Positions 23,880-63,787 are shown, numbered from the stretch's first letter. The stretch: DNA of 64,000 bases from a bacterium (GCA_021833065.1 JAKBGO010000002.1:11493-75492); one strand, 5' to 3'. Made by a program: numbers and translations. Notes: generated by a model not told the origin, from the sequence alone.

Positions 23880-23953
23880 TGGGAATTGGCCAAGCGGTAA
23901 GGCACTGGGTTCTGGTCCCAGGATCGGGGGTTCGAATCCCTCATTCCCAGCCA
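23880..23953 (+). tRNA. tRNA-Gln (anticodon CUG), CCA encoded
   Basis: Manual cloverleaf: acceptor TGGGAAT/ATTCCCA (U1:A72), D arm GCCAAGCGGTAAGGC, anticodon stem CTGGG/CCCAG with loop TTCTGGT, T arm GGGGG-TTCGAAT-CCCTC, G73, CCA. Confidence 0.93.
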
Positions 23954-23976
23954 AGCATAAGCACTTTGGTCATTTT

Positions 23977-24408
23977 TTGAGACCTTTTTGTATAATAATG
24001 ACTGCTATGAAAGTTAGTATAGACCGACTTATAAATGCATTAGGTGCATCATGGACTAAAGATGTTTGCTTTGATGCTAGTAAATGGAGTCCAGATAATC
24101 CAGCACGAGGTCAATGCGTAGCATCATCACTAGTAGTACAAGATTATTTAGGTGGTGATTTACGACGATATGATGTCACTCTTCCAGGCGGCTCGCACGA
24201 AAAACACTATTGCAACGTACTCGAGGATGGCACAGAAGTTGATACGACACGCAAGCAATATACTTTCCCGGTTACATTAAGTATTGATCCTGTAAACCTT
24301 AAGAGCTATAGAACAGTCCGCGAAAAAAGACTAGCAGAGGAAGAGACGCGAAAAAAATATGAGCGACTTAGGGATAGGGTATCTGCCTATCTAAGCATGA
24401 AGGTCTAG
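23977..24408 (+). CDS. hypothetical protein (YunG-like pattern)
   Basis: W-x-PDNPARGQC-x-SSLVVQDYLGG resembles the YunG family as I remember it. The true start is probably an internal ATG (23998 or 24007), just after a TATAAT at 23991-23996. Confidence 0.5.
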   Translation: MRPFCIIMTAMKVSIDRLINALGASWTKDVCFDASKWSPDNPARGQCVASSLVVQDYLGGDLRRYDVTLPGGSHEKHYCNVLEDGTEVDTTRKQYTFPVTLSIDPVNLKSYRTVREKRLAEEETRKKYERLRDRVSAYLSMKV

Positions 24409-24494
24409 CAAAGTCGTAACACGGAACTTAATGGTCTGCATGCATAAGTTCAGGAACATATACTTGCTAATATTCATTATGCTAAACTGTCACT

Positions 24495-25883
24495 ATGCCT
24501 CCAAATGAAGACCAAAACCAAAATCAGAACCAGGAAATAAATATTGCTGAAGTTGCAAATAGTCCTTTCGACATTAAAAGCCAATTACCTCCTGAAGCCT
24601 ATAACCCTGTTATGCCAAGCACGTTGCCTAACAAGCCTGGCCATAAGAAGATGATAATTAGTATCCTTGTTATCTTCTTGATCGTTGTGGGTGTTAGTGT
24701 GGTGTTTTACCTTAAGTTATTTCAAAAGTCTTCTAGCTTGTACTTTTATAGCAACATGTCTGGCTCGAGCTTGATTGTGGAAGATTCAGCCCAGAAAACA
24801 ATAACTAAATTTACTCCTCAAAATCAGTTAAATCTGGTCGGCGTCTTGGATCGCAACAGTCAGGCAACCCTGGTCGGAGAACAGTCTCCAAATTTATTTT
24901 TTAATAATGAATACATCGTAAATAACACTGGGTTAGTTAACAAACTCCCTTCTTCGGTTGTTTCACCTCAGTTCCTTGGTTCAAATAAAAGTATTCAAGA
25001 ACCTGCTATCCAACAATTTTTAGGCTATAGTGGTGATTTAATAGAAAACCACTGCCAGTATAATGCCGCGAATTATATCGAAGCCTGCAATATATATGAT
25101 GTTAATCTAAAGAGTGGCTCTTTTAAAACCATTGGCTCGTTTCCTGTCCCTAACCTAGGATCATCCCAGCAAAATGCCCTACCGCCATATGATTTATATA
25201 TACTTGGCGTTTCGCCTAAAAACATAGTCTACGTCATATACGTAACTTCTTTGAATAATACTGCGGCCACGGTTGACTTAGAAGAAATTAATGTGAGTGA
25301 CGACAGAGTAGTAAAGATTGTAAAGATTAATAACATTGACAGTAGCATGGTAGGCTTGGATCATGCCGATACATATGCAATTCCGTTTTCTCTGTCTAGT
25401 AATTTTGGTTGGTTTGCCTATACAAGCCAGAATGGTGAAAATGGCATCTATATTACTAATCTCACTAGTGGTAAAACTAAAAAGTTGAGTGTCCCTCAAA
25501 GTAGTAGTTCATTCCCATCCATTTCCGGAGTTCAGGATGTAGCGTTATCACCAGACGGAAGCAAGGTAGCTTTCGTTAATATAAAAGGTAACCTAGCCCC
25601 AGGCGCTGCCGATACTGAGTATATTGCCTACATTAATGTTGCGGATGGGAATGTCACTAAAATCTATACCAGTAGTGATGACGCTTACAAACTTATGGGC
25701 TGGTTAAGAAACAACACCATTGCATTTCTCAGTTATGCTGGCAAGCCGAACTTCTTTAATTATTTCAGCTTAAAGACGTCAAAAATATCTCAAATTCCAG
25801 CACCTAAAGGATACTTTCTTGTAGTCCACGACTTATCTTACGGCAGTATGAACTACCTCGCCCAAGTTCAGCGGTTATACTAA
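24495..25883 (+). CDS. membrane-anchored protein with TolB/PD40-like beta-propeller features
   Basis: N-terminal NQ-rich tail, one TM helix (MIISILVIFLIVVGVSVVFYL), and an ALSPDGSKVAFV-type PD40 motif near the C-terminus. Confidence 0.6.
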   Translation: MPPNEDQNQNQNQEINIAEVANSPFDIKSQLPPEAYNPVMPSTLPNKPGHKKMIISILVIFLIVVGVSVVFYLKLFQKSSSLYFYSNMSGSSLIVEDSAQKTITKFTPQNQLNLVGVLDRNSQATLVGEQSPNLFFNNEYIVNNTGLVNKLPSSVVSPQFLGSNKSIQEPAIQQFLGYSGDLIENHCQYNAANYIEACNIYDVNLKSGSFKTIGSFPVPNLGSSQQNALPPYDLYILGVSPKNIVYVIYVTSLNNTAATVDLEEINVSDDRVVKIVKINNIDSSMVGLDHADTYAIPFSLSSNFGWFAYTSQNGENGIYITNLTSGKTKKLSVPQSSSSFPSISGVQDVALSPDGSKVAFVNIKGNLAPGAADTEYIAYINVADGNVTKIYTSSDDAYKLMGWLRNNTIAFLSYAGKPNFFNYFSLKTSKISQIPAPKGYFLVVHDLSYGSMNYLAQVQRLY

Positions 25884-26460
25884 AAAATCTATAGGACGAC
25901 CTGGAAGCATAATTACATTAAAGTTGCTCTGCCCACCAATACTATTAAGCCGAAGAAACCATTAAAAATTGATTCTAGAGAATATCCTGCATTAACTGGG
26001 GCCCTTACTTTATTACTAGTCAAAATAATGCATCGATCAAATACAGTCTATAAATCTAGATTAACTATAGTAATTCAGGTAGCATTGAGAATTGAGTCAC
26101 AAAAGCTAACCTCCTACGCTATAGTTACTCGCGTATAGAACTCAGCAGCTATGCGACATTTGATTTAAATTTACATGGTTGTCAGCTTTATGATGTAAGC
26201 GTTGGCGTAGATATATTAATAACTTATTGTAACTAGAACAGTTCAGGTAATAGTTTGCATTAGAGTATCCTTATGTAGCACTCGGTTTTTTATATAAGAG
26301 TTTAATTTGATAATGAAATTAGCATAAGTCCAGAAGCATATTGGACTCTGAATAGAAATTGGGATACAAGTTTTAAGTCATAAGTATTGTTCTAAATTCG
26401 TGAACTAAAGGCAGCCAAGACTAACTACAGAACTTAAATACATAAAGTCGAGGCTTCTAA

Positions 26461-26505
26461 GATTCGAACGGAAATCTAAAAGACTACACTTCTTATTACA
26501 AGGCA
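26461..26505 (+). repeat. degenerate copy of the R2 repeat (5' part)
   Basis: GATTCGAACGGAA (26461-26473) is identical to 27198-27210 and is followed by weaker similarity (AAAAG..CTAC). The two copies bracket the RelE/Phd module. Confidence 0.5.
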
Positions 26506-26508
26506 ATA

Positions 26509-26766
26509 TTATCTATAAACATCTTTACGATGTTGAACCCTCAAGATTTTTATTAATTCTTCTTCTGTATCAAAAACTATTCGAAAATTTCCAATTCTCC
26601 ACCTAAAGTCTCCATCTTTAGTATTGACGAGTCTTTTGGCAAATTGCAGTGGATCATCATGCTCGATAAAAAATTTCAGTTTTTTGGCAATACGCTTTCG
26701 GAGCATTGGGTCTAAGGACTGAAGGTCTTTTTTTGCCCTACTTTCAATTACAAGCCGATACGCCAT
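26509..26766 (-). CDS. type II toxin, RelE/ParE family
   Basis: MAYRLVIESRAKKDLQSL... and the C-terminal RVQHRKDVYR are typical of the family. The ATG at 26764-26766 lies 5 nt after the antitoxin stop. The track ORF extends to 26787. Confidence 0.85.
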   Translation of the reverse strand: MAYRLVIESRAKKDLQSLDPMLRKRIAKKLKFFIEHDDPLQFAKRLVNTKDGDFRWRIGNFRIVFDTEEELIKILRVQHRKDVYR

Positions 26767-26771
26767 TGCAT

Positions 26772-27029
26772 TTAAAGTTCTGCCCAAATATCACCAAAGA
26801 CCTCTTCAGGTGTGTAGAATTCTTTGCTTTTCCTAGCATCAGCAATACTTTTAACATATTCTGGATCTTGCACGGTAAGTAAGTCTTCTAGAGTATCTAT
26901 ATCTATAAGTGCCGATTCAACTTTCCCATGTCTTTTAACAAGAATAAGGTTTTTGTTCTCTCGAACTGCATCTAATACATCTGATAAGTTCTTGCGCATA
27001 GACGATGCGTCTATTGTGCTTGTGCTCAT
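26772..27029 (-). CDS. type II antitoxin, Phd/YefM family
   Basis: 85 aa; the N-terminal pattern (MRKNLSDVLDAV...LILVKRHGKVESALIDIDTLEDL) is typical of Phd/YefM, and the gene sits directly upstream of the toxin. Confidence 0.85.
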   Translation of the reverse strand: MSTSTIDASSMRKNLSDVLDAVRENKNLILVKRHGKVESALIDIDTLEDLLTVQDPEYVKSIADARKSKEFYTPEEVFGDIWAEL

Positions 27030-27213
27030 AAATTATTCTATCCTCGTACGTTGTTTTATTACTGTTTTATTGTACTTTTTATTTGTACTTTTTGTCAATA
27101 GATTTTTATTTTGTTTGACTAATCGAGCTATAGAATGATCCTGCAAACTGAGTGTTCTGCGTATTTAGTAGATTACTCGTAAATTTTAGACGCATTGGAT
27201 TCGAACGGAATAC

Positions 27214-27243
27214 GAAAAGGTTCTACGCCGCACTGCTCAGCCA
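27214..27243 (+). repeat. R2 repeat copy A (tRNA-Gln 3'-end mimic)
   Basis: GAAAAGGTTCTACGCCGCACTGCTCAGCCA. Shares GGTTC, CC and GCYCAGCCA with copies B-D. GGTTC to CCA spans 25 nt, the same as in the true tRNA. Confidence 0.7.
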
Positions 27244-27279
27244 TCACATATTCGAACTTAAGGCAAATATGTATTTGGG

Positions 27280-27861
27280 CTAAGCATTATTTTCGCTACG
27301 GTACCATTCAGCAAATTCATGCCAGGCATCACGACGAGTTAAGTAACGTGCCATTACTGCTTTCTCGCCTTGCTCAAAAACTTCAGCAATTGTTTTTCCG
27401 TTATCATGGTCCAGCTCGGTTACTGTCATGTTTGGTGAACGGTCGTTTTTTCCGCGTGGTTTATCGATAATTTTTCCAAATATATCGTTTTTAAAAGTCT
27501 TTAATAATTTTCCATCGTAATAAGCTAAATATTGATGTAATATTATTTGCCGATCTTTTTTACCATCCATTAGTTTTATAAAGTCTTCTGGTTGGAACCA
27601 CTTATTTATTGACTTCATGTAAGGTCCAGGGAAGCTGCTGAGAGCCGGAATGTCCCACGAGTCATCACTGACAACTACTGGTTTTGAAAGGCCTTCATAT
27701 GCCCGACGTACTTTATCTTGCACAATAATAATTGGATCTTCGCCTTGAATTTCGTCAACCTCAATTATCGCTTGTTCAACTTTTATATCAAATTTGGAAC
27801 ATACAGTTTGAGCTATTAACATTTTTTCTTTGTTACTGGTCGCAAAATATACAGTATCCAT
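27280..27861 (-). CDS. non-canonical purine NTP pyrophosphatase (HAM1/RdgB/ITPase family)
   Basis: FATSNKEK, VDEIQ and DDSWDIPALSSFPGPYMKS motifs of the Ham1 fold. Confidence 0.8.
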   Translation of the reverse strand: MDTVYFATSNKEKMLIAQTVCSKFDIKVEQAIIEVDEIQGEDPIIIVQDKVRRAYEGLSKPVVVSDDSWDIPALSSFPGPYMKSINKWFQPEDFIKLMDGKKDRQIILHQYLAYYDGKLLKTFKNDIFGKIIDKPRGKNDRSPNMTVTELDHDNGKTIAEVFEQGEKAVMARYLTRRDAWHEFAEWYRSENNA

Positions 27862-27909
27862 TTCAATAAATTATATCGTAAGTAAAGCGAATTACAGTGA
27901 GCAAAGACC

Positions 27910-27939
27910 GAAAAGGTTCCTGACCGGCACGCCCAGCCA
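27910..27939 (+). repeat. R2 repeat copy B
   Basis: GAAAAGGTTCCTGACCGGCACGCCCAGCCA, 27/30 identical to copy D. Confidence 0.7.
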
Positions 27940-27990
27940 ATTATCTATGGTAGCTTGACATATTTATAATAATACTATTATAATGTTTAT

Positions 27991-28212
27991 ATGATTCAAA
28001 GTATTCAAAAGGTTATTAAAATTGGCACAAGCGGTGGCGTAACAATACCAGCTAAAGCACTAAAGCAACAGAATATCTCTTTCGGTGACGAGGTTGAAGT
28101 AATTGTAAGACCACTTCACAGCCATAGTGAAGAAGACCAAAAGGTCATTAATTCTGCAAAAAAAATATTATCCGACTACAAAAGTGATTTTGTTAGTCTA
28201 TCTAAAAGATGA
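27991..28212 (+). CDS. AbrB/MazE/SpoVT-family antitoxin
   Basis: VIKIGTSGGVTIPAKALKQQNISFGDEVEV is a SpoVT-AbrB swapped-hairpin motif. The gene overlaps the Doc gene by 4 nt (ATGA). Confidence 0.8.
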   Translation: MIQSIQKVIKIGTSGGVTIPAKALKQQNISFGDEVEVIVRPLHSHSEEDQKVINSAKKILSDYKSDFVSLSKR

Positions 28213-28586
28213 TAATTTTAACTCTCGAACAACTTTTAGAGATACATACTATAGCTATTGACGCTACAGGTGGAAGCGCTGGAATCAGAGATCTGGGTAG
28301 ACTAGAGGCGGCTATTGCCACACAAACTCAAAATGTTTTTGGAGAAGAGCTATACTCTAGTATTGCTGATAAAGCAGCTGCATTAATTAGAGCTGTAATC
28401 GCAGATCATCCCTTTATTGATGGAAACAAGAGAACAGCTATGCTTATCGGAATAACTTTCCTTGAAATAAACGGTTTAAGATTTATCGCAAAACCCGGAG
28501 AAATAGAAGACTTCGCAGTTAGTATAGCAACAAGCCGTCTTGATATTCCGATAATCTCAGCCTGGCTTAATAAACATTTGAGCTAA
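28209..28586 (+). CDS. doc: type II toxin, death-on-curing (Doc/Fic) family
   Basis: Fic motif HPFIDGNKRTA. Confidence 0.9.
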   Translation: MIILTLEQLLEIHTIAIDATGGSAGIRDLGRLEAAIATQTQNVFGEELYSSIADKAAALIRAVIADHPFIDGNKRTAMLIGITFLEINGLRFIAKPGEIEDFAVSIATSRLDIPIISAWLNKHLS

Positions 28587-28600
28587 ATTAAAGAAACGAG

Positions 28601-28623
28601 TTCGAATTCCTCATTCCCCGCCA
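28601..28623 (+). repeat. R1 repeat copy 1 (copy of the tRNA-Gln 3' end)
   Basis: TTCGAATTCCTCATTCCCCGCCA, 21/23 identical to 23931-23953, same orientation. Confidence 0.8.
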
Positions 28624-28736
28624 GTACAAATTCGAATTTTAGTAGAAGTAGTAGCCAAGTTAATGTCTACATTCACTATTGAAATTTCTTAAATTTATGA
28701 GTCATAATTATTTTCGTATATTATAAATATTAAACT

Positions 28737-29033
28737 ATGTGGCAACTATACGTATTTAGTTTTTTATCGGGCGCTTTTGCGGCAAATGGAACGCCGCACT
28801 TCATTAAAGGCATGATGGGCCTCAAGAACCAAACTCCATTTGGCAAAGGGTCATCAGCATTGGTAAACGTTTGTTGGGGCTGGGCTAATCTAGTGGCCGC
28901 CGTCATTTTTCTCCACTTTGCTCATCCACACACTCATATATATAGGGCGTTTGCACTGTTCGCCGTTGCAGCCCTACTAAAAGGATTGGGTTCAGCCAAC
29001 CAATGGTCTAAGCACCCAGAATACAATAAGTAA
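28737..29033 (+). CDS. small membrane protein
   Basis: 98-aa ORF with three hydrophobic segments; no family recognised. Confidence 0.45.
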   Translation: MWQLYVFSFLSGAFAANGTPHFIKGMMGLKNQTPFGKGSSALVNVCWGWANLVAAVIFLHFAHPHTHIYRAFALFAVAALLKGLGSANQWSKHPEYNK

Positions 29034-29064
29034 TTTCTATTCACGGATGCGCCGAACAAAAGCC

Positions 29065-29094
29065 CAAAAGGTTCTATACCTTCATGCTCAGCCA
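29065..29094 (+). repeat. R2 repeat copy C
   Basis: CAAAAGGTTCTATACCTTCATGCTCAGCCA. Confidence 0.65.
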
Positions 29095-29154
29095 TATAGT
29101 TTACGTACAATGATATATATCAGTAGTTTTCGCTCATTTCAAATAGACGAAAAA

Positions 29155-29430
29155 CTAAAGGTTTTCTAGTGGAATCCCTGTTTTGTCTGAGACTTTCCGA
29201 GCCCAAGATAGCAACCTTTCGAACTGACTATCACGTGCGGCCATTTCAGTCTCATATTTATCTATTCTCCCAATAAATCCATCTATAGTATTAATTAAAC
29301 GATCATATTTTACGTCTAAAGTATCAAATCTTTTTTCTACTTCACTAAATTTATCCGATACTTGATCCATTAATATTTTAATAGTATCGAGGACTTCATT
29401 TACATCATCTTTTGTAGCTTGGTTGCTCAT
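29155..29430 (-). CDS. hypothetical coiled-coil protein
   Basis: 91-aa ORF. Its C-terminal motif ARDSQFERLLSWARKVSDKTGIPLENL is shared with the frameshifted paralog at 29651-29901. Confidence 0.55.
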   Translation of the reverse strand: MSNQATKDDVNEVLDTIKILMDQVSDKFSEVEKRFDTLDVKYDRLINTIDGFIGRIDKYETEMAARDSQFERLLSWARKVSDKTGIPLENL

Positions 29431-29477
29431 GTTTATATTTTATCACTTTCTAAATTCTTTGTTGATATTTGCAAGAG

Positions 29478-29496
29478 TTCGAATCCCTCATTCCCA
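29478..29496 (+). repeat. R1 repeat copy 2
   Basis: TTCGAATCCCTCATTCCCA, 19/19 identical to 23931-23949, then diverges. Confidence 0.8.
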
Positions 29497-29509
29497 TATG
29501 TCACGAACT

Positions 29510-29592
29510 TGAGCATTAGTCCAGGTTGGTATGGGTACCACGGATTAGGCTGTACAAAGTACGAAATGGTTCCTGACCGGCATGCTCAGCCA
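29510..29592 (+). other. tRNA-like remnant that contains R2 copy D (29563-29592)
   Basis: Perfect 7-bp acceptor pairing TGAGCAT/ATGCTCA, T8 A9, D-loop-like AGGTTGGTA, G73 and CCA. The anticodon and T stems do not pair, so I do not call it a functional tRNA. Confidence 0.4.
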
Positions 29593-29650
29593 GGTATTTA
29601 AAGTGTATAAATCCTCAAAACAAATCATTTCAAAGTGTTATAATATTGCC

Positions 29651-29901
29651 ATGAACGACGATCAGTTTACGAAGCTTTTTAAATATATAGAAGAATTTAG
29701 AAGTGAAGTTAATGATAAACTCGACCAGAAAGCATCTCAAGGTAGTATGGAACGTCTTTTGAATACTCTTTTGATGGATTTTTGAAACGACTTGATAATT
29801 TAGATACTGAACAATCCGCTCGTGACGCACAGTTCGAACGACTACTTGAATGGGCTCGAGAAGTGTCCCAAAAAACCGGTATCCCTCTGAAAAATCTTTA
29901 A
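29651..29901 (+). pseudogene. frameshifted paralog of the 29155-29430 coiled-coil gene
   Basis: Frame 0 gives MNDDQFTKLFKYIEEFRSEVNDKLDQKASQGSMERLLNTL and stops at 29783. Frame +2 continues DGFLKRLDNLDTEQSARDAQFERLLEWAREVSQKTGIPLKNL* to 29901. The shift falls in the T-run at 29768-29772. Confidence 0.6.
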
Positions 29902-29914
29902 AAATTTCGTATAA

Positions 29915-29937
29915 TTCGAATCCCTCTTTCCTAGCCC
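29915..29937 (+). repeat. R1 repeat copy 3 (degenerate)
   Basis: TTCGAATCCCTCTTTCCTAGCCC, 20/23 identical to 23931-23953. Confidence 0.65.
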
Positions 29938-30254: not shown

Positions 30255-30366
30255 TTCAGTGTTATGAATCGACTAAAACGGTTTAAACACCGAAAATAAT
30301 GGTCAGCGAAGACACAGATCAACGATGTTATTTAGCCAACTGCCCTAAACCGACGTGTTATTATAA

Positions 30367-41710: not shown

Positions 41711-42547
41711 ATGAAAGGTTATCCTACCAGACAACAACTTTTGAAATTGAAAAGTTTTAAGAGCCCCAATTGTCTGAGTATTTATTCGCCGTACCTAAGT
41801 CCAAACAGTCCGACTAATCCCAATAAGATAGAGTTTGGAAATCTATTTAAAGACGTCAAAGAAAAACTTATTGAATCCGGGCTTGAAAAAAAAGAGATTA
41901 AAAAAATGTTATTGCCGGTTCAGAAAATGATTAAAAATCATGAGTTTTGGCCAACCAAAAAACAAAGTTTGGTAGCATTCGTACACCCTGACTTTTTTGT
42001 TTTTTATCATATTGACGACACCAATTTTGAACCTTCAGTTTATCTATCGAAAGGGTTCGTTCTGAAGCCACTGGAGAAAACCATGAATAAAAACAGATCA
42101 TACATATTACTATCACTCAGCCACAACAAAGTGGAAATTTTTGAAGGAGATCTATATGATATCAGGAAAGTTCATCTTAAAAACTTTTCCACCAATATGA
42201 AATCGGCTCTGAATATTGGTGAATACAACAAGCTAAGGGGCATGCACGAGATTGCTCCATCCTATATGGGGAAGGGTTCAGAGGCATTTCATGGACACTA
42301 CAATGTCAAAGAAACTGATAAAATTATGTTACTTGAGTTCTTTAGACTGATTGATAAAAAACTTCATGGCATTTTAGTTAAGAAGAACAAACCGTTGATT
42401 CTCGCAGGGGTCAACCACTTAATTCCAATCTATCGAAAAGTAAACACCTATCCGAAAATTTTTTCCAAATACATCAGGGGTAATCTTAACTACTCTGACC
42501 TAAAAACCATTCACCAAAGAGCGATAAAGATTGTTCAGTCTACTTAA
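41711..42547 (+). CDS. hypothetical protein resembling bacterial aeRF1-like (baeRF) families
   Basis: The N-terminal pattern L..LKSFKSPNCLSIYSPY..PNSPTNPNKIEFGNLFKDVKEKL...EFWPTKKQSLVAFV matches the '...VSIYLPT....QN.IRLKNL...FW..Q..GLA.F' signature I recall for baeRF proteins. SD AAGGAGGGG. Confidence 0.45.
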   Translation: MKGYPTRQQLLKLKSFKSPNCLSIYSPYLSPNSPTNPNKIEFGNLFKDVKEKLIESGLEKKEIKKMLLPVQKMIKNHEFWPTKKQSLVAFVHPDFFVFYHIDDTNFEPSVYLSKGFVLKPLEKTMNKNRSYILLSLSHNKVEIFEGDLYDIRKVHLKNFSTNMKSALNIGEYNKLRGMHEIAPSYMGKGSEAFHGHYNVKETDKIMLLEFFRLIDKKLHGILVKKNKPLILAGVNHLIPIYRKVNTYPKIFSKYIRGNLNYSDLKTIHQRAIKIVQST

Positions 42548-61175: not shown

Positions 61176-62249
61176 CTATTCATCTAATGACGGTTTTTCA
61201 AGCGCTAGATCTTCTACCACTGGGTTAGATCCCGCAATCTTAACGACGTCCTTATCGACCTTTTTTAGTTCGTGATGAGCTCGATTAAAGTGCCCGACAG
61301 TTGTAGACAAAGATGATCCTAATTTTTGCATAAATCCCTCAAAATTACCGATATGCTTTCCCAATTCGCCGACTCTAAGACTAATGTCTTTTGCCTGCTT
61401 TTCAATCGATAAAGCCCTAAGACCCTGCATAACGGTTTGCAAATAAGCCATGAAACTGGTTGGAGAGACTATGATGACATGTTTATCCCTAAATGCGTAT
61501 TCCAGTAAATCGCGATTAGATGCTCCGGTAGAACCAACCTGTGAAACCAATAATTCATAGTAAATTGCCTCACTTGGTATAAACATAAAAGCAAAATCCA
61601 TAGTGTCTTCATTTTGTCTGATGTATTTTGATGTCTCGTCAATCCTACCTTTAAGATCATTCTTAAAATTTTTCAACATATCAGCTTTTATTTTAGGGTC
61701 ATGTTCGCTAATTAATCTATTGTAATTCTCTAATGAAAACTTGGAATCGATTGGCAATAACTTACCTTTTTCCAAATATATTACGGCATCAACCATTTCA
61801 CCGTCTTTAAACTTGTATTGCATCTTATATCTATTTGGAGGCAAAACATTCTGTAACAAATTTTCCAGATAATATTCACCGAGGACACCCCTTTGTTTAG
61901 GATTCTGGAGAACATTCTGCAACGTCTTTAGCTCTGTCGTCACATCAACGACCTTTTTATTTGTTTCATCAAGTTTCGTAAGTTTTTCGGTAACCTGAGT
62001 AATTAGCTTTGTGCTTTCTGCAAACTGCTTAACCATTGAATCTCTCATTGATTCCTGGGTTTTATCTAGTCTATCGGTAATTTGTTCACTTAAGTTTTCT
62101 TTTAAAGAATTTACTGTCTTGTTAAGTTCATTTAGGTCTTCTTTTAGCATTAATGTGGATGATGATTTTTTTGAACCAAAAAAATAAATTATCGCAACGA
62201 TAACCACAAAAATTCCTATGATGATTAAATCCAAGGTGCTCATTACCAC
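61176..62249 (-). CDS. rmuC: DNA recombination protein RmuC
   Basis: N-terminal TM helix, a long coiled coil, and a C-terminal RmuC nuclease-like domain (DAVIYL...LPIDSKF...FMFIPSEA). Confidence 0.9.
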   Translation of the reverse strand: MVMSTLDLIIIGIFVVIVAIIYFFGSKKSSSTLMLKEDLNELNKTVNSLKENLSEQITDRLDKTQESMRDSMVKQFAESTKLITQVTEKLTKLDETNKKVVDVTTELKTLQNVLQNPKQRGVLGEYYLENLLQNVLPPNRYKMQYKFKDGEMVDAVIYLEKGKLLPIDSKFSLENYNRLISEHDPKIKADMLKNFKNDLKGRIDETSKYIRQNEDTMDFAFMFIPSEAIYYELLVSQVGSTGASNRDLLEYAFRDKHVIIVSPTSFMAYLQTVMQGLRALSIEKQAKDISLRVGELGKHIGNFEGFMQKLGSSLSTTVGHFNRAHHELKKVDKDVVKIAGSNPVVEDLALEKPSLDE

Positions 62250-62288: not shown

Positions 62289-63725
62289 CTACCAACTTGA
62301 ACTGACAGCCTTTCCCTCTTCATAGCCGGCCGCCGACTGGATTCCGACCACAGCTTTATCGAAAAAATCCTCGAGAGAAACAGCACCGGCATAAGACATT
62401 GAACTTCTCAGACCAGAAGTTATTTGATCGATAATATCTTCAACCCCAGGGGTTTTATCATCTATATAAAGTTTTGAATTGGAAATTCCTTCTTCAAAAA
62501 ATTCTTTAAGAGATCTGTCATAAGGATTATTATCTTGACTCCGGTTTTGAACAGCTCTTTTAGATGCCATACCAAAATTTTCTTTGTAAAGACCTCTTTC
62601 GTCTCTGAGTATGTCTCCCGCACTCTCATAAGTTCCGGAAAACCAGGAACCAATCATCACGGCACTAGCGCCGGCCGCAATTGCCAAGGCAACATCTCTA
62701 GGATATTTGATTCCGCCATCAGCCCAAACTTTAGCGCCGCGTGAGCGTGCAGCCTCAGCGCATTCCAATACGGCACTAAACTGAGGTCTTCCAACTCCCG
62801 TCATCATTCTAGTAATACACATCGCTCCCGGTCCCACTCCAACCTTAATAATGTTCGCACCAGCATCAATCAAATCATTTGTAGCTTGAGCAGTTACAAC
62901 ATTACCGGCTACTATTTGAACATCTTGACTGAGAGATCTGGCAATCTTAATGGCCTCTATCATCTTCTGTTGATGGCCGTGAGCCGTATCCATGACCAGA
63001 ACATCTGCACCGAACGAAAGAACCTTTTCGACTTTCGACTTGACATCACCGTTGACACCTACGGCCACTCCAACCATGAGTTTTCCGTCTTTACTAAGAG
63101 CCGGCGAATACAAGCTGGCACGGAGAGCACTTCTTTGTGTTATTATGCCGACAAGCTTACCTTCATTGTCTACGACCGGAGCCGCATTAATATGATTTTC
63201 ATATAACTGTTCAAACATTTCTTTGGGACTTTTTCCTTGAGCCAAGGTAACCAGCGCAGGGTTCATGAAAGTATCAAGACTAGCAAATCTGTCCGCCTCG
63301 TAAGCTTCTTTTTCATTTATCAAGCCAACCGGTCGATTTTCATCATCAACAATCAGTACCACACCATGGGCCCTTTTATTGATTATATTTAACGCATCAG
63401 CTACCAAATTAGCGGTTTTTAGGACAAGCGGGGTTTCATATACTGGATTAGCAGACTTTATCTGCTTAATCATTGTGCTTAATCTGTCAAAAGGAATGTC
63501 TTGTGGTAGAATGGCGATTCCGCCACGTCTAGCAACAGTTTCCGCCATTCGGCGACCGGCTACTGCATTCATATTGGCAACAACAATTGGAATATGAGTT
63601 CCGGTATTGTCGGATGGCGTTAAATCAACACTAAATCTTGATCCGACATCACTATAACTCGGTATTAAAAACACGTCGTTATAAGTCAAATCATAATTAA
63701 TAGTCGAATCGTTTAAAAACTTCAT
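62289..63725 (-). CDS. guaB1: GuaB1-family IMP-dehydrogenase-related protein (GMP-reductase type)
   Basis: DLTYNDVFLIPSYSDVGSRFSVDL...VVANMNAVAGRRMAETVARRGGIAILPQD is the GuaB1-type N-terminus. Also has a CBS pair and the catalytic loop GVGPGAMCITR. I chose the ATG at 63723-63725 (preceded by GGGGGG) over the track's TTG at 63755. Confidence 0.9.
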   Translation of the reverse strand: MKFLNDSTINYDLTYNDVFLIPSYSDVGSRFSVDLTPSDNTGTHIPIVVANMNAVAGRRMAETVARRGGIAILPQDIPFDRLSTMIKQIKSANPVYETPLVLKTANLVADALNIINKRAHGVVLIVDDENRPVGLINEKEAYEADRFASLDTFMNPALVTLAQGKSPKEMFEQLYENHINAAPVVDNEGKLVGIITQRSALRASLYSPALSKDGKLMVGVAVGVNGDVKSKVEKVLSFGADVLVMDTAHGHQQKMIEAIKIARSLSQDVQIVAGNVVTAQATNDLIDAGANIIKVGVGPGAMCITRMMTGVGRPQFSAVLECAEAARSRGAKVWADGGIKYPRDVALAIAAGASAVMIGSWFSGTYESAGDILRDERGLYKENFGMASKRAVQNRSQDNNPYDRSLKEFFEEGISNSKLYIDDKTPGVEDIIDQITSGLRSSMSYAGAVSLEDFFDKAVVGIQSAAGYEEGKAVSSSW

Positions 63726-63787
63726 TGTAAATATAACCCCCCACTTAAAGACCAACTATAAGTTTACTACAATTTAATATTAGAAAT

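Follow-up and report, generated by a model that had tools for sequence, protein, structure and literature searches.

The locus described here lies in a 64,000-nt stretch of DNA from a Saccharibacteria (Saccharimonadales) bacterium (GCA_021833065.1, JAKBGO010000002.1:11493-75492), which we call the window and number from its first letter. Its sole tRNA gene, a tRNA-Gln(CTG) with an encoded CCA (23880-23953, plus strand; ARAGORN; 61.3 bits with the Rfam tRNA model), is followed by an array of small gene modules and two families of short repeats. R1 is a copy of the 3' end of tRNA-Gln in which identity begins in the T-loop, and R2 is a look-alike of that end. Every copy of either repeat in the window is on the plus strand.

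Three R1 copies follow the tRNA. R1b (28600-28623) has 2 mismatches, with its central dinucleotide changed from CA to CC; R1c (29477-29496) is a 20/20 match that is cut after ...CCCA and ends exactly at the CA; and R1d (29914-29937) is degenerate, with 3-4 mismatches, a central TA and the ending CCC. The 30-nt R2 copies lie at 27214-27243, 27910-27939, 29065-29094 and 29563-29592. A profile search stretched them to about 45 nt, giving R2a (27198-27243, E = 7.6e-8), R2b (27894-27939, E = 1.1e-10), R2c (29050-29094, E = 2.4e-9) and R2d (29548-29592), and found no additional copies elsewhere in the 64 kb. The central CA is retained in R1c and all four R2 copies and is mutated in R1b and R1d. A decayed R2, in which AAGGCA replaces CAGCCA, lies at 26461-26505. 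The earlier note on this DNA, made from the sequence alone, had called it a half-copy; its first ~25 nt do match the region upstream of R2a, while the remainder has decayed.

The R2 consensus, GAACAAAGnnCGAAAAGGTTCyaGACCGgCATGCTCAGCCA, preserves GGTTC, CC and CAGCCA at the spacing found in tRNA-Gln, whose consensus across the same stretch is GGTTCGAATCCttCCgCCCCAGCCA. R2 matches tRNA-Gln at 17/25 positions (16/25 when consensus is compared with consensus). Neither the R1 nor the R2 pattern had a single match in 100 dinucleotide-preserving shuffles of the window, so the repeats are non-random. Pattern searches and consensus comparison thereby bear out what the earlier note had reported about R1, the four R2 copies, and an R2 that ends in CAGCCA with tRNA-like spacing from GGTTC to CCA. 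Its statement that a repeat occupies every intergenic gap holds for 26.46-29.94 kb and fails for 23.95-26.46 kb.

The modules between the repeats are small, and their genes face both ways. Directly to the right of the decayed R2, a ParE/RelE toxin gene (26509-26787) and a Phd antitoxin gene (26772-27029), both on the minus strand, form a module whose right-end site is R2a. Just upstream of this operon, at 27046-27104, are three tandem units of about 13 nt (GTACTTTTTATTT-like) that may be an operator or promoter region. The following cassette has a left-end motif, L(a), with the sequence TCACATATTCGAACTTAAGGCAAATATGTATT (27244-27275, plus strand), in which ATTCGAAC mirrors the GTTCNNNN of the site about the CA; it carries a Ham1-family NTPase gene on the minus strand (27280-27861) and ends in R2b. 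A MazE/AbrB antitoxin and Fic/Doc toxin pair (27991-28586, plus strand) comes next. The L(a) variant ATTCGAAT (28624-28655, plus strand) then opens a cassette with a gene for a 98-aa membrane protein of no Pfam family (28737-29033, plus strand), ending in R2c. Beyond it are the gene for a 91-aa coiled-coil-like protein with no family match (29155-29430, minus strand); a cargo-less unit of 96 nt (29497-29592, plus strand) that consists of a left-end motif variant and R2d; and an inverted, frameshifted paralogue of the 91-aa gene (29651-29901, plus strand; 66% identity over 44 aa). The 91-aa gene and this paralogue diverge across R1c and the cargo-less unit, and short homologues adjoin sites in two other loci (L031 and L049; comparison loci carry L numbers). 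Pfam backs the earlier calls of ParE/Phd, Ham1 and MazE/Fic-Doc, and the frameshifted paralogue and the mixed gene orientation that had been noted likewise stand. In base composition, the array is unremarkable.

R2 is not confined to this genome. We scanned a metagenome collection for the exact pattern AAWGGTTCYNNNCCNNCAYGCYCAGCCA, which by our own estimate carries about 44 bits, so that essentially no chance matches would be expected, and found it in 62 contigs. ARAGORN identified 14 tRNA genes in 60 R2 loci, all of them tRNA-Gln (CTG or TTG), and in 13/14 loci the tRNA was upstream of R2, in the same orientation and 0.2-6.7 kb away. At least two sites (R2 plus R1-type) were present in 25 non-redundant loci, with a median spacing of 1180 nt (n = 40; interquartile range 693-2044, minimum 323). 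A profile search of the R2 loci found no R2 on the opposite strand. The genes between sites are very diverse and face both ways; by inspection of translations rather than by Pfam, they resemble genes for a histidine kinase, an LD-carboxypeptidase, an APH-like kinase, Fic and a UvrD-like helicase. R2 positions that the search pattern did not force were also conserved. On this sequence evidence, R2 is a widespread DNA site linked to tRNA-Gln. IMG/VR had 0 matches to R1, to either of two R2 forms and to the junction of R2 or tRNA with the left end of a large serine recombinase (LSR) element, so nothing indicates that predicted phages carry the sites. In GTDB species representatives, where the CNNM/CBS gene that precedes the tRNA served as anchor (12 loci), tRNA-Gln followed it in L001 and L011 only, and both contigs end within ~130 nt.

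A second motif, TACTGTCTCATTTGTCTCA, in which two TGTCTCA repeats follow a TATACT box, has 25 copies (at most 3 mismatches) in loci that include L026, L029, L047, L050, L056, L061, L064, L074, L078, L081, L082 and L084, and is absent from the window. It is oriented as R2 in 23/25 copies, and in about 15 of these it stops 40-74 nt short of R2's end. Candidate roles are a site for an accessory protein and an outward-facing promoter in one subclass of cassettes.

Several cassettes recur as units in other genomes, with boundaries at the sites. For the Ham1 cassette (27238-27940), the counterpart is L036:3737-4439, with 75% identity over 709 nt. The aligned stretch opens at the CAGCCA of the site before it (R2a in the window, an R1-type copy, AGTTCGAGTCCCTTCACCCCAGCCA, in L036), and the homology stops at the CCA of the cassette's own R2. 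The 98-aa cassette is found again in L067, L041/L053 and L070 with the same left-end motif and R2. In L067 the real tRNA-Gln stands to its left, in both L041 and the window an R1-type copy does, and in L070 the site there is degenerate; the sequence 3' of its R2 differs in every context. MazE/Doc is ~77% identical (by alignment) to a site-bracketed pair in L161 that lies 10.7 kb from tRNA-Gln, beyond an LSR element, and has a right-end site of a different type from that in the window. The cargo-less unit shares 78-83% identity with units in L039 and L075. Across loci, right flanks form small families, each found behind both tRNA/R1-type and R2-type left halves, which is what recombination between sites would produce. 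We also considered a universal right half-site and ruled it out, since there are small families only.

The junctions share a geometry that points to a crossover position. The layout GTTCNNNN-10 nt-CA-10 nt-ATTCGAAC is present in seven distinct junctions, and 11-CA-11 in one more, which amounts to a 38-bp inverted repeat (8-10-CA-10-8) centred on the CA of CAGCCA. In R1c of the window, in the R2-like site of L075 and in the degenerate site of L039, the left half is cut directly after the CA, and all three join the same YRTGTCACGAAC... unit. L092 and L093 hold the same LSR element, identical up to ...AACCATGCAACAG and sharing CCCAGCCA; to the left of CCCAGCCA is genuine tRNA-Gln in L093 and unrelated DNA in L092. 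Known LSR sites have a 2-nt central crossover inside a quasi-palindrome of ~38-40 bp. Because of the symmetric 38-bp geometry, the CA-cut junctions and the L092/L093 breakpoint, we infer that strand exchange would occur at the CA that corresponds to C71-A72 of tRNA-Gln (window 23948-23949, plus strand). The final ~25 nt of the tRNA (GGTTCGAATCCCTCATTCCCAGCCA) would then be an attB-type left half-site, and R1b (CC) and R1d (TA) would be dead sites. The earlier note had proposed looking for module gain or loss exactly at repeat boundaries; it was found across genomes, at the L092/L093 breakpoint and at the CAGCCA boundaries of the Ham1 and 98-aa cassettes, and among strains of the window's species none was seen. 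Contig ends in Logan (29563/29592 and 28605) had also looked like module polymorphism, which we rejected because they are better explained by an R2 30-mer common to other genomes in the sample.

LSR genes are found at the junction in related loci. In L072, a 536-aa LSR gene on the opposite strand runs through CAGCCA into R2, which supplies the final residues of the protein (WLSMTV*; L072 3415-3435). R2 is joined to a truncated LSR in L059, and L073 has an intact 428-aa LSR 1.2 kb from R2. Pfam identified Resolvase and Recombinase domains in the two LSRs, one of which also has a zinc ribbon. Among the L072-type family are proteins named by NCBI as Saccharibacteria and Saccharimonadales recombinases, and all three relatives examined (in loci L159 to L162) lie on the junction. 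In L159 and L160 the LSR reading frame and tRNA-Gln(CTG) have 15 nt in common, the final ones of the tRNA. The frame in L161 continues antisense across the complete tRNA, and the 25 extra residues of that protein come from there; the element itself can be traced as far as an R2-like site, 10.7 kb from the tRNA. In L162 a degenerate site holds the end of the frame, and the tRNA is another 6.5 kb distant. Because the reading frame of the L072-type LSR extends across the junction at which the element is attached, the left neighbour, be it R2, a tRNA end or a whole tRNA, determines the C-terminal tail of the protein; relatives are 529-598 aa long.

The L073-type family is very large in the candidate phyla radiation (CPR). 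Its gene is convergent with tRNA-Gln in 4/5 relatives examined; L089, L093 and L154 have 139-205 nt between the CCA of tRNA-Gln and the LSR stop codon, and L096 and L097 have 1.7-2.6 kb, a gap that holds extra genes. The left end of the LSR element in L089 is nearly the same as the sequence after R2 in L059. An LSR reading toward the target beside attL is present in L089, L093, L154, L159-L161 and L072, and the window has none. The breakpoint of the L096/L097 elements, which are of Nomurabacteria type, has no R-type site, and a profile search across 8-10 kb of cargo in nine LSR loci matched no R2. In L096/L097, several T-arm-like motifs (GGTTCGAATCC, GGTTCGAACC, GGTTCTAACCC and GACCGCGTTCCATGACC) lie in the ~300 nt that separate tRNA-Gln from the cargo; they may be extra binding sites or remnants of stacked sites. 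Among predicted viral contigs of IMG/VR (L104-L139), distant L073-type relatives lie beside 17 tRNA genes, all downstream of the LSR gene and 16/17 convergent with it, some only 116-155 nt from the stop codon; they are tRNA-Gln (four), tRNA-Ser (seven) and tRNAs for Glu, Asp, Asn and Trp. Targeting of tRNA gene 3' ends looks like a trait of this whole family.

The earlier remark that the window encodes no integrase, transposase or IntI agrees with our searches, in which tblastn, phmmer and Pfam detected no recombinase there. With XerC and lambda Int as queries, phmmer found no relatives among the window's open reading frames (ORFs) and no tyrosine recombinase in ORFs of at least 100 aa in loci L001-L086. 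Pfam found no recombinase among the large ORFs of the window that were scanned (61176-62249 and 62289-63755 were not), and precomputed Pfam matches for 12.8-39.4 kb held none. Elsewhere in the window, an ORF at 41711-42547 has domains of the bacterial archaeo-eukaryotic release factor (baeRF) family and is unrelated to the array.

We consider it probable that the array grew by accretion of small cassettes through site-specific recombination at the 3' end of tRNA-Gln, with an LSR acting in trans. The right end of each cassette would be a left half-site, either R1 (the last ~24 nt of the tRNA) or R2. An incoming circle would recombine either at the tRNA end or at a site already present, most likely at the CA of CAGCCA (C71-A72) and most likely by means of an LSR supplied in trans, and the right-end site of the circle would become joined to the former downstream DNA. 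Cassettes would therefore stack facing the same way even when their genes do not. Direct observations cover the sites and how well they are conserved, the boundaries of the cassettes and where the LSR genes lie. Exchange at exactly this dinucleotide, LSR action on cassettes that carry no LSR gene and the order of insertion are what the model would add to them. The evidence for the enzyme is positional, and recombination by LSRs on these sites is a prediction. The window's own array appears to be without a recombinase and largely fixed.

Of the explanations offered in the earlier note, a cassette system with tRNA-mimicking sites and a recombinase encoded elsewhere fits best, given the conserved sites, the exact boundaries and the recombinases at the junction in relatives. 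Our account departs from that note in pointing to an LSR rather than an integrase or IntI, in placing the crossover in the last bases of the acceptor stem, and in recognizing that analogues have already been described (ssrA islands, SCC arrays and tycheposons).

A number of observations weigh against cassette accretion by an LSR. A tblastn search with two LSRs found no LSR in the 64-kb window, intact or fragmentary, and an LSR or LSR fragment was near R2 in only 3/62 R2 loci. The distal end of an LSR element was seen only in L161, where the R2-like site is 4-5 nt longer than R2. The near-invariance of R2 is partly an ascertainment effect, forced by the search pattern. Most right flanks have no common motif, and in a loose scan 99/121 were singletons, which fit decay as well as mobility. 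A crossover at CA leaves unexplained the origin of R1 copies that match the host tRNA. Canonical LSRs are not known to recombine attP with attL, and insertion in tandem would therefore depend on relaxed behavior like that of Ccr; Ccr enzymes have been reported to accept hybrid sites. Finally, the same-species contigs fetched were all identical to the window from 26.8 kb rightwards, and the only strain breakpoint (24439/24440) falls at no recognizable R1 or R2 site.

That breakpoint lies in the part of the locus nearest the tRNA. GCA_027340605.1 is 99.95% identical to the window up to 24439, just after a YunG-family gene that is the first after the tRNA (23998-24408, plus strand; PF24585, 2.1e-28), and unrelated from 24440 on. 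Next in the window is a gene for a 462-aa membrane-anchored protein with no Pfam match (24495-25883, plus strand), which a 456-aa ORF in the tRNA-Gln array of L028 resembles when translations are compared by eye, without scoring. The ~580 nt that follow (25884-26460) have no ORF of at least 40 aa and no similarity to cassette proteins of other loci, and are possibly what is left of a cassette. The first copy of a 22-nt direct repeat (18/22), at 24418-24439, ends exactly at the breakpoint; the second, at 30286-30307, is just past the array and before a gene for a 280-aa membrane protein. The repeat may be due to chance or may mark the ends of a larger replaceable segment. Assemblies of the species break or vary between 24.0 and 27.1 kb, so that populations differ in the tRNA-proximal part and share fixed distal cassettes. 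This fits insertion beside the tRNA without proving it. The comparison across strains and relatives that the earlier note had suggested therefore gave a divided answer, with cassettes exchanged at site boundaries among relatives and an invariant array from 26.8 kb among strains of the species.

The most serious competitor is pure decay, in which the modules are remnants of multi-kb LSR islands at tRNA-Gln and the small units were never mobile alone. Full LSR elements of at least 10 kb do exist at the site, left ends are heterogeneous, degenerate sites and a truncated LSR occur, and the window's array is invariant among strains; to this extent the earlier note's proposal of decayed tandem islands is partly true. 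What this proposal does not cover as a whole account is that small cassettes recur as units in different genomes and at different array positions. The Ham1 and 98-aa cassettes keep both ends, MazE/Doc stays bracketed by sites even where the type of its right-end site differs, and three genomes have conserved the cargo-less 96-nt unit. Separate deletion events would not have ended at the same boundaries, which argues against pure decay, and we regard it as unlikely.

The remaining explanations dispense with an LSR. A tyrosine recombinase encoded elsewhere, either a tRNA integrase with crossover in the T-loop or IntI, would make R1 a displaced 3' fragment of the tRNA. R1 identity begins in the T-loop, reportedly a known sublocation for tyrosine integrases, and R1c matches the host tRNA exactly, but phmmer found no such enzyme in the window or in the ORFs of L001-L086, the breakpoints are at CAGCCA rather than in the T-loop, and R2, with its 17/25 match, could not restore the tRNA after a T-loop crossover. 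R2 also lacks an attC-like hairpin, and gene orientation is mixed. A tyrosine system is therefore a very doubtful alternative to cassette accretion by an LSR. Its two specific forms were rejected: the integron, given that no IntI-type recombinase was found in the window or L001-L086, that R2 has a 3-bp stem rather than a hairpin and that the genes are not co-oriented, and the classical tyrosine-integrase tRNA island, given that no tyrosine recombinase was detected in those same sequences and R2 could not restore the tRNA. Natural transformation followed by homologous recombination, with the sites and the tRNA serving as short homology arms, would need no dedicated recombinase at all. Competence has been reported in Saccharibacteria, and the sites are conserved between genomes. 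However, the common blocks are only 25-45 nt, different left halves (tRNA, R1 and R2) meet the same right flank at one fixed point, and LSR genes are positioned on the junction; we give this idea equally little weight. Least credible of all is that R1 and R2 are tRNA-like RNA elements, either RNase P/Z processing signals or 3' stabilizers, which was the third suggestion of the earlier note. They do resemble a T-arm plus the 3' strand of an acceptor stem and end in CCA. Yet Rfam at a permissive threshold detected only the genuine tRNA in 23-31 kb, RNAalifold on 26 R2 copies gave 3 invariant pairs, -1.45 kcal/mol and no covariation, and folding 76-nt stretches ending at each site produced a cloverleaf for the tRNA only. 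R2 thus lacks a conserved fold, and all sites point the same way even though gene direction varies.

A broader proposal, which we offer tentatively and rate below even, is that CPR bacteria, above all Saccharibacteria, run an integron-like capture system. In it, tRNA-targeting LSRs would serially insert sub-kb, mostly single-gene cassettes without recombinases at the end of tRNA-Gln, each with a dedicated end site of 28-45 bp that mimics the tRNA 3' end, and toxin-antitoxin (TA) pairs, nucleotide-pool enzymes, kinases and a UvrD-like helicase would circulate between species. CPR genomes are tiny and few mobile elements have been described in them. A single hotspot, defined by its sequence and gathering accessory genes, would explain part of their strain-level gene flux, and R2 beside tRNA-Gln would serve as a simple marker of that flux in metagenomes. 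LSR families at tRNA 3' ends (Gln here; Ser, Glu, Asp, Asn and Trp beside distant relatives) would extend the range of targets known for serine integrases and supply genome engineering with new candidate pairs of enzyme and site, among them a natural landing pad for Saccharibacteria genetics. Conceptually, the array would be a serine-recombinase counterpart of the integron.

Integrons and clusters of attC sites lacking integron integrases (CALINs) depend on the tyrosine recombinase IntI, on attC hairpins folded from single strands and on co-oriented, promoterless cassettes. The array shares with them small, mostly single-gene cassettes, many TA pairs, a site at one end, a fixed primary site and a recombinase outside the cassettes. 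It differs in that no tyrosine recombinase or hairpin was found, orientation is mixed and the primary site is a tRNA end. Cis-mobilizable elements (CIMEs), known together with accretion-mobilization from streptococcal integrative and conjugative elements, and the pdif modules of Acinetobacter plasmids also lack recombinases, have att- or dif-like flanks and use an enzyme encoded elsewhere. These rely on tyrosine integrases or XerCD and have no mimic of a tRNA 3' end. Xer-dependent modules (pdif and IMEX) have 28-bp dif-like sites (11-6-11) that alternate in orientation in the case of pdif; the sites here are all direct repeats, and their symmetric unit is 38 bp.

Closer parallels are found among islands that integrate at the 3' end of a conserved gene. 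Staphylococcal cassette chromosome (SCC) elements and psiSCC elements use Ccr LSRs to integrate at the 3' end of rlmH, form tandem arrays that include elements without a recombinase, and tolerate hybrid sites. One conserved gene 3' end and tandem arrays bounded by direct repeats are common to both systems; SCC elements differ in having a protein-gene target, a size of many kb and no tRNA mimicry. The tycheposons of Prochlorococcus integrate at tRNA genes, with LSRs in 27/937, and newer insertions push older ones outward with partial tRNA copies between them, so that remnants build islands (Hackl et al., 10.1101/2020.12.28.424599). Integration at tRNA genes, serial accretion, partial tRNA separators and degenerate remnants are shared with the array, while tycheposons have mostly tyrosine recombinases, replication genes and true partial tRNAs, and the parts of that account consulted describe no conserved mimic site or sub-kb single-gene cassettes.

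Full-text searches for serine recombinases together with Saccharibacteria, CPR or tRNA-Gln found no published description of the present system. Its nearest counterpart is the family of ssrA islands in Dehalococcoides, in which a reverse-strand gene next to attL encodes the LSR DsiB (540 aa), 20-bp direct repeats of the ssrA 3' end stand between tandem islands, and about half of the islands have no integration module and were read as cis-mobilizable (McMurdie et al. 2011, PMC3146451). Here too, the target is a stable-RNA 3' end, tandem direct repeats and recombinase-less units occur, an LSR lies beside attL in relatives and none in the window, and direct repeats of the target 3' end bound modules in one orientation, as in ssrA and SCC-type islands. 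The ssrA islands target transfer-messenger RNA (tmRNA), whereas this system targets tRNA-Gln, has in addition the diverged yet conserved R2 family, resides in CPR hosts and includes one LSR family whose reading frame crosses the junction. In architecture, the system matches the ssrA islands of Dehalococcoides and resembles SCC/psiSCC and tycheposon islands; its new features are the CPR hosts, a tRNA rather than a tmRNA or protein gene as LSR target, units of a single gene and less than 1 kb, the mimic site R2, and an LSR frame that crosses its own junction.

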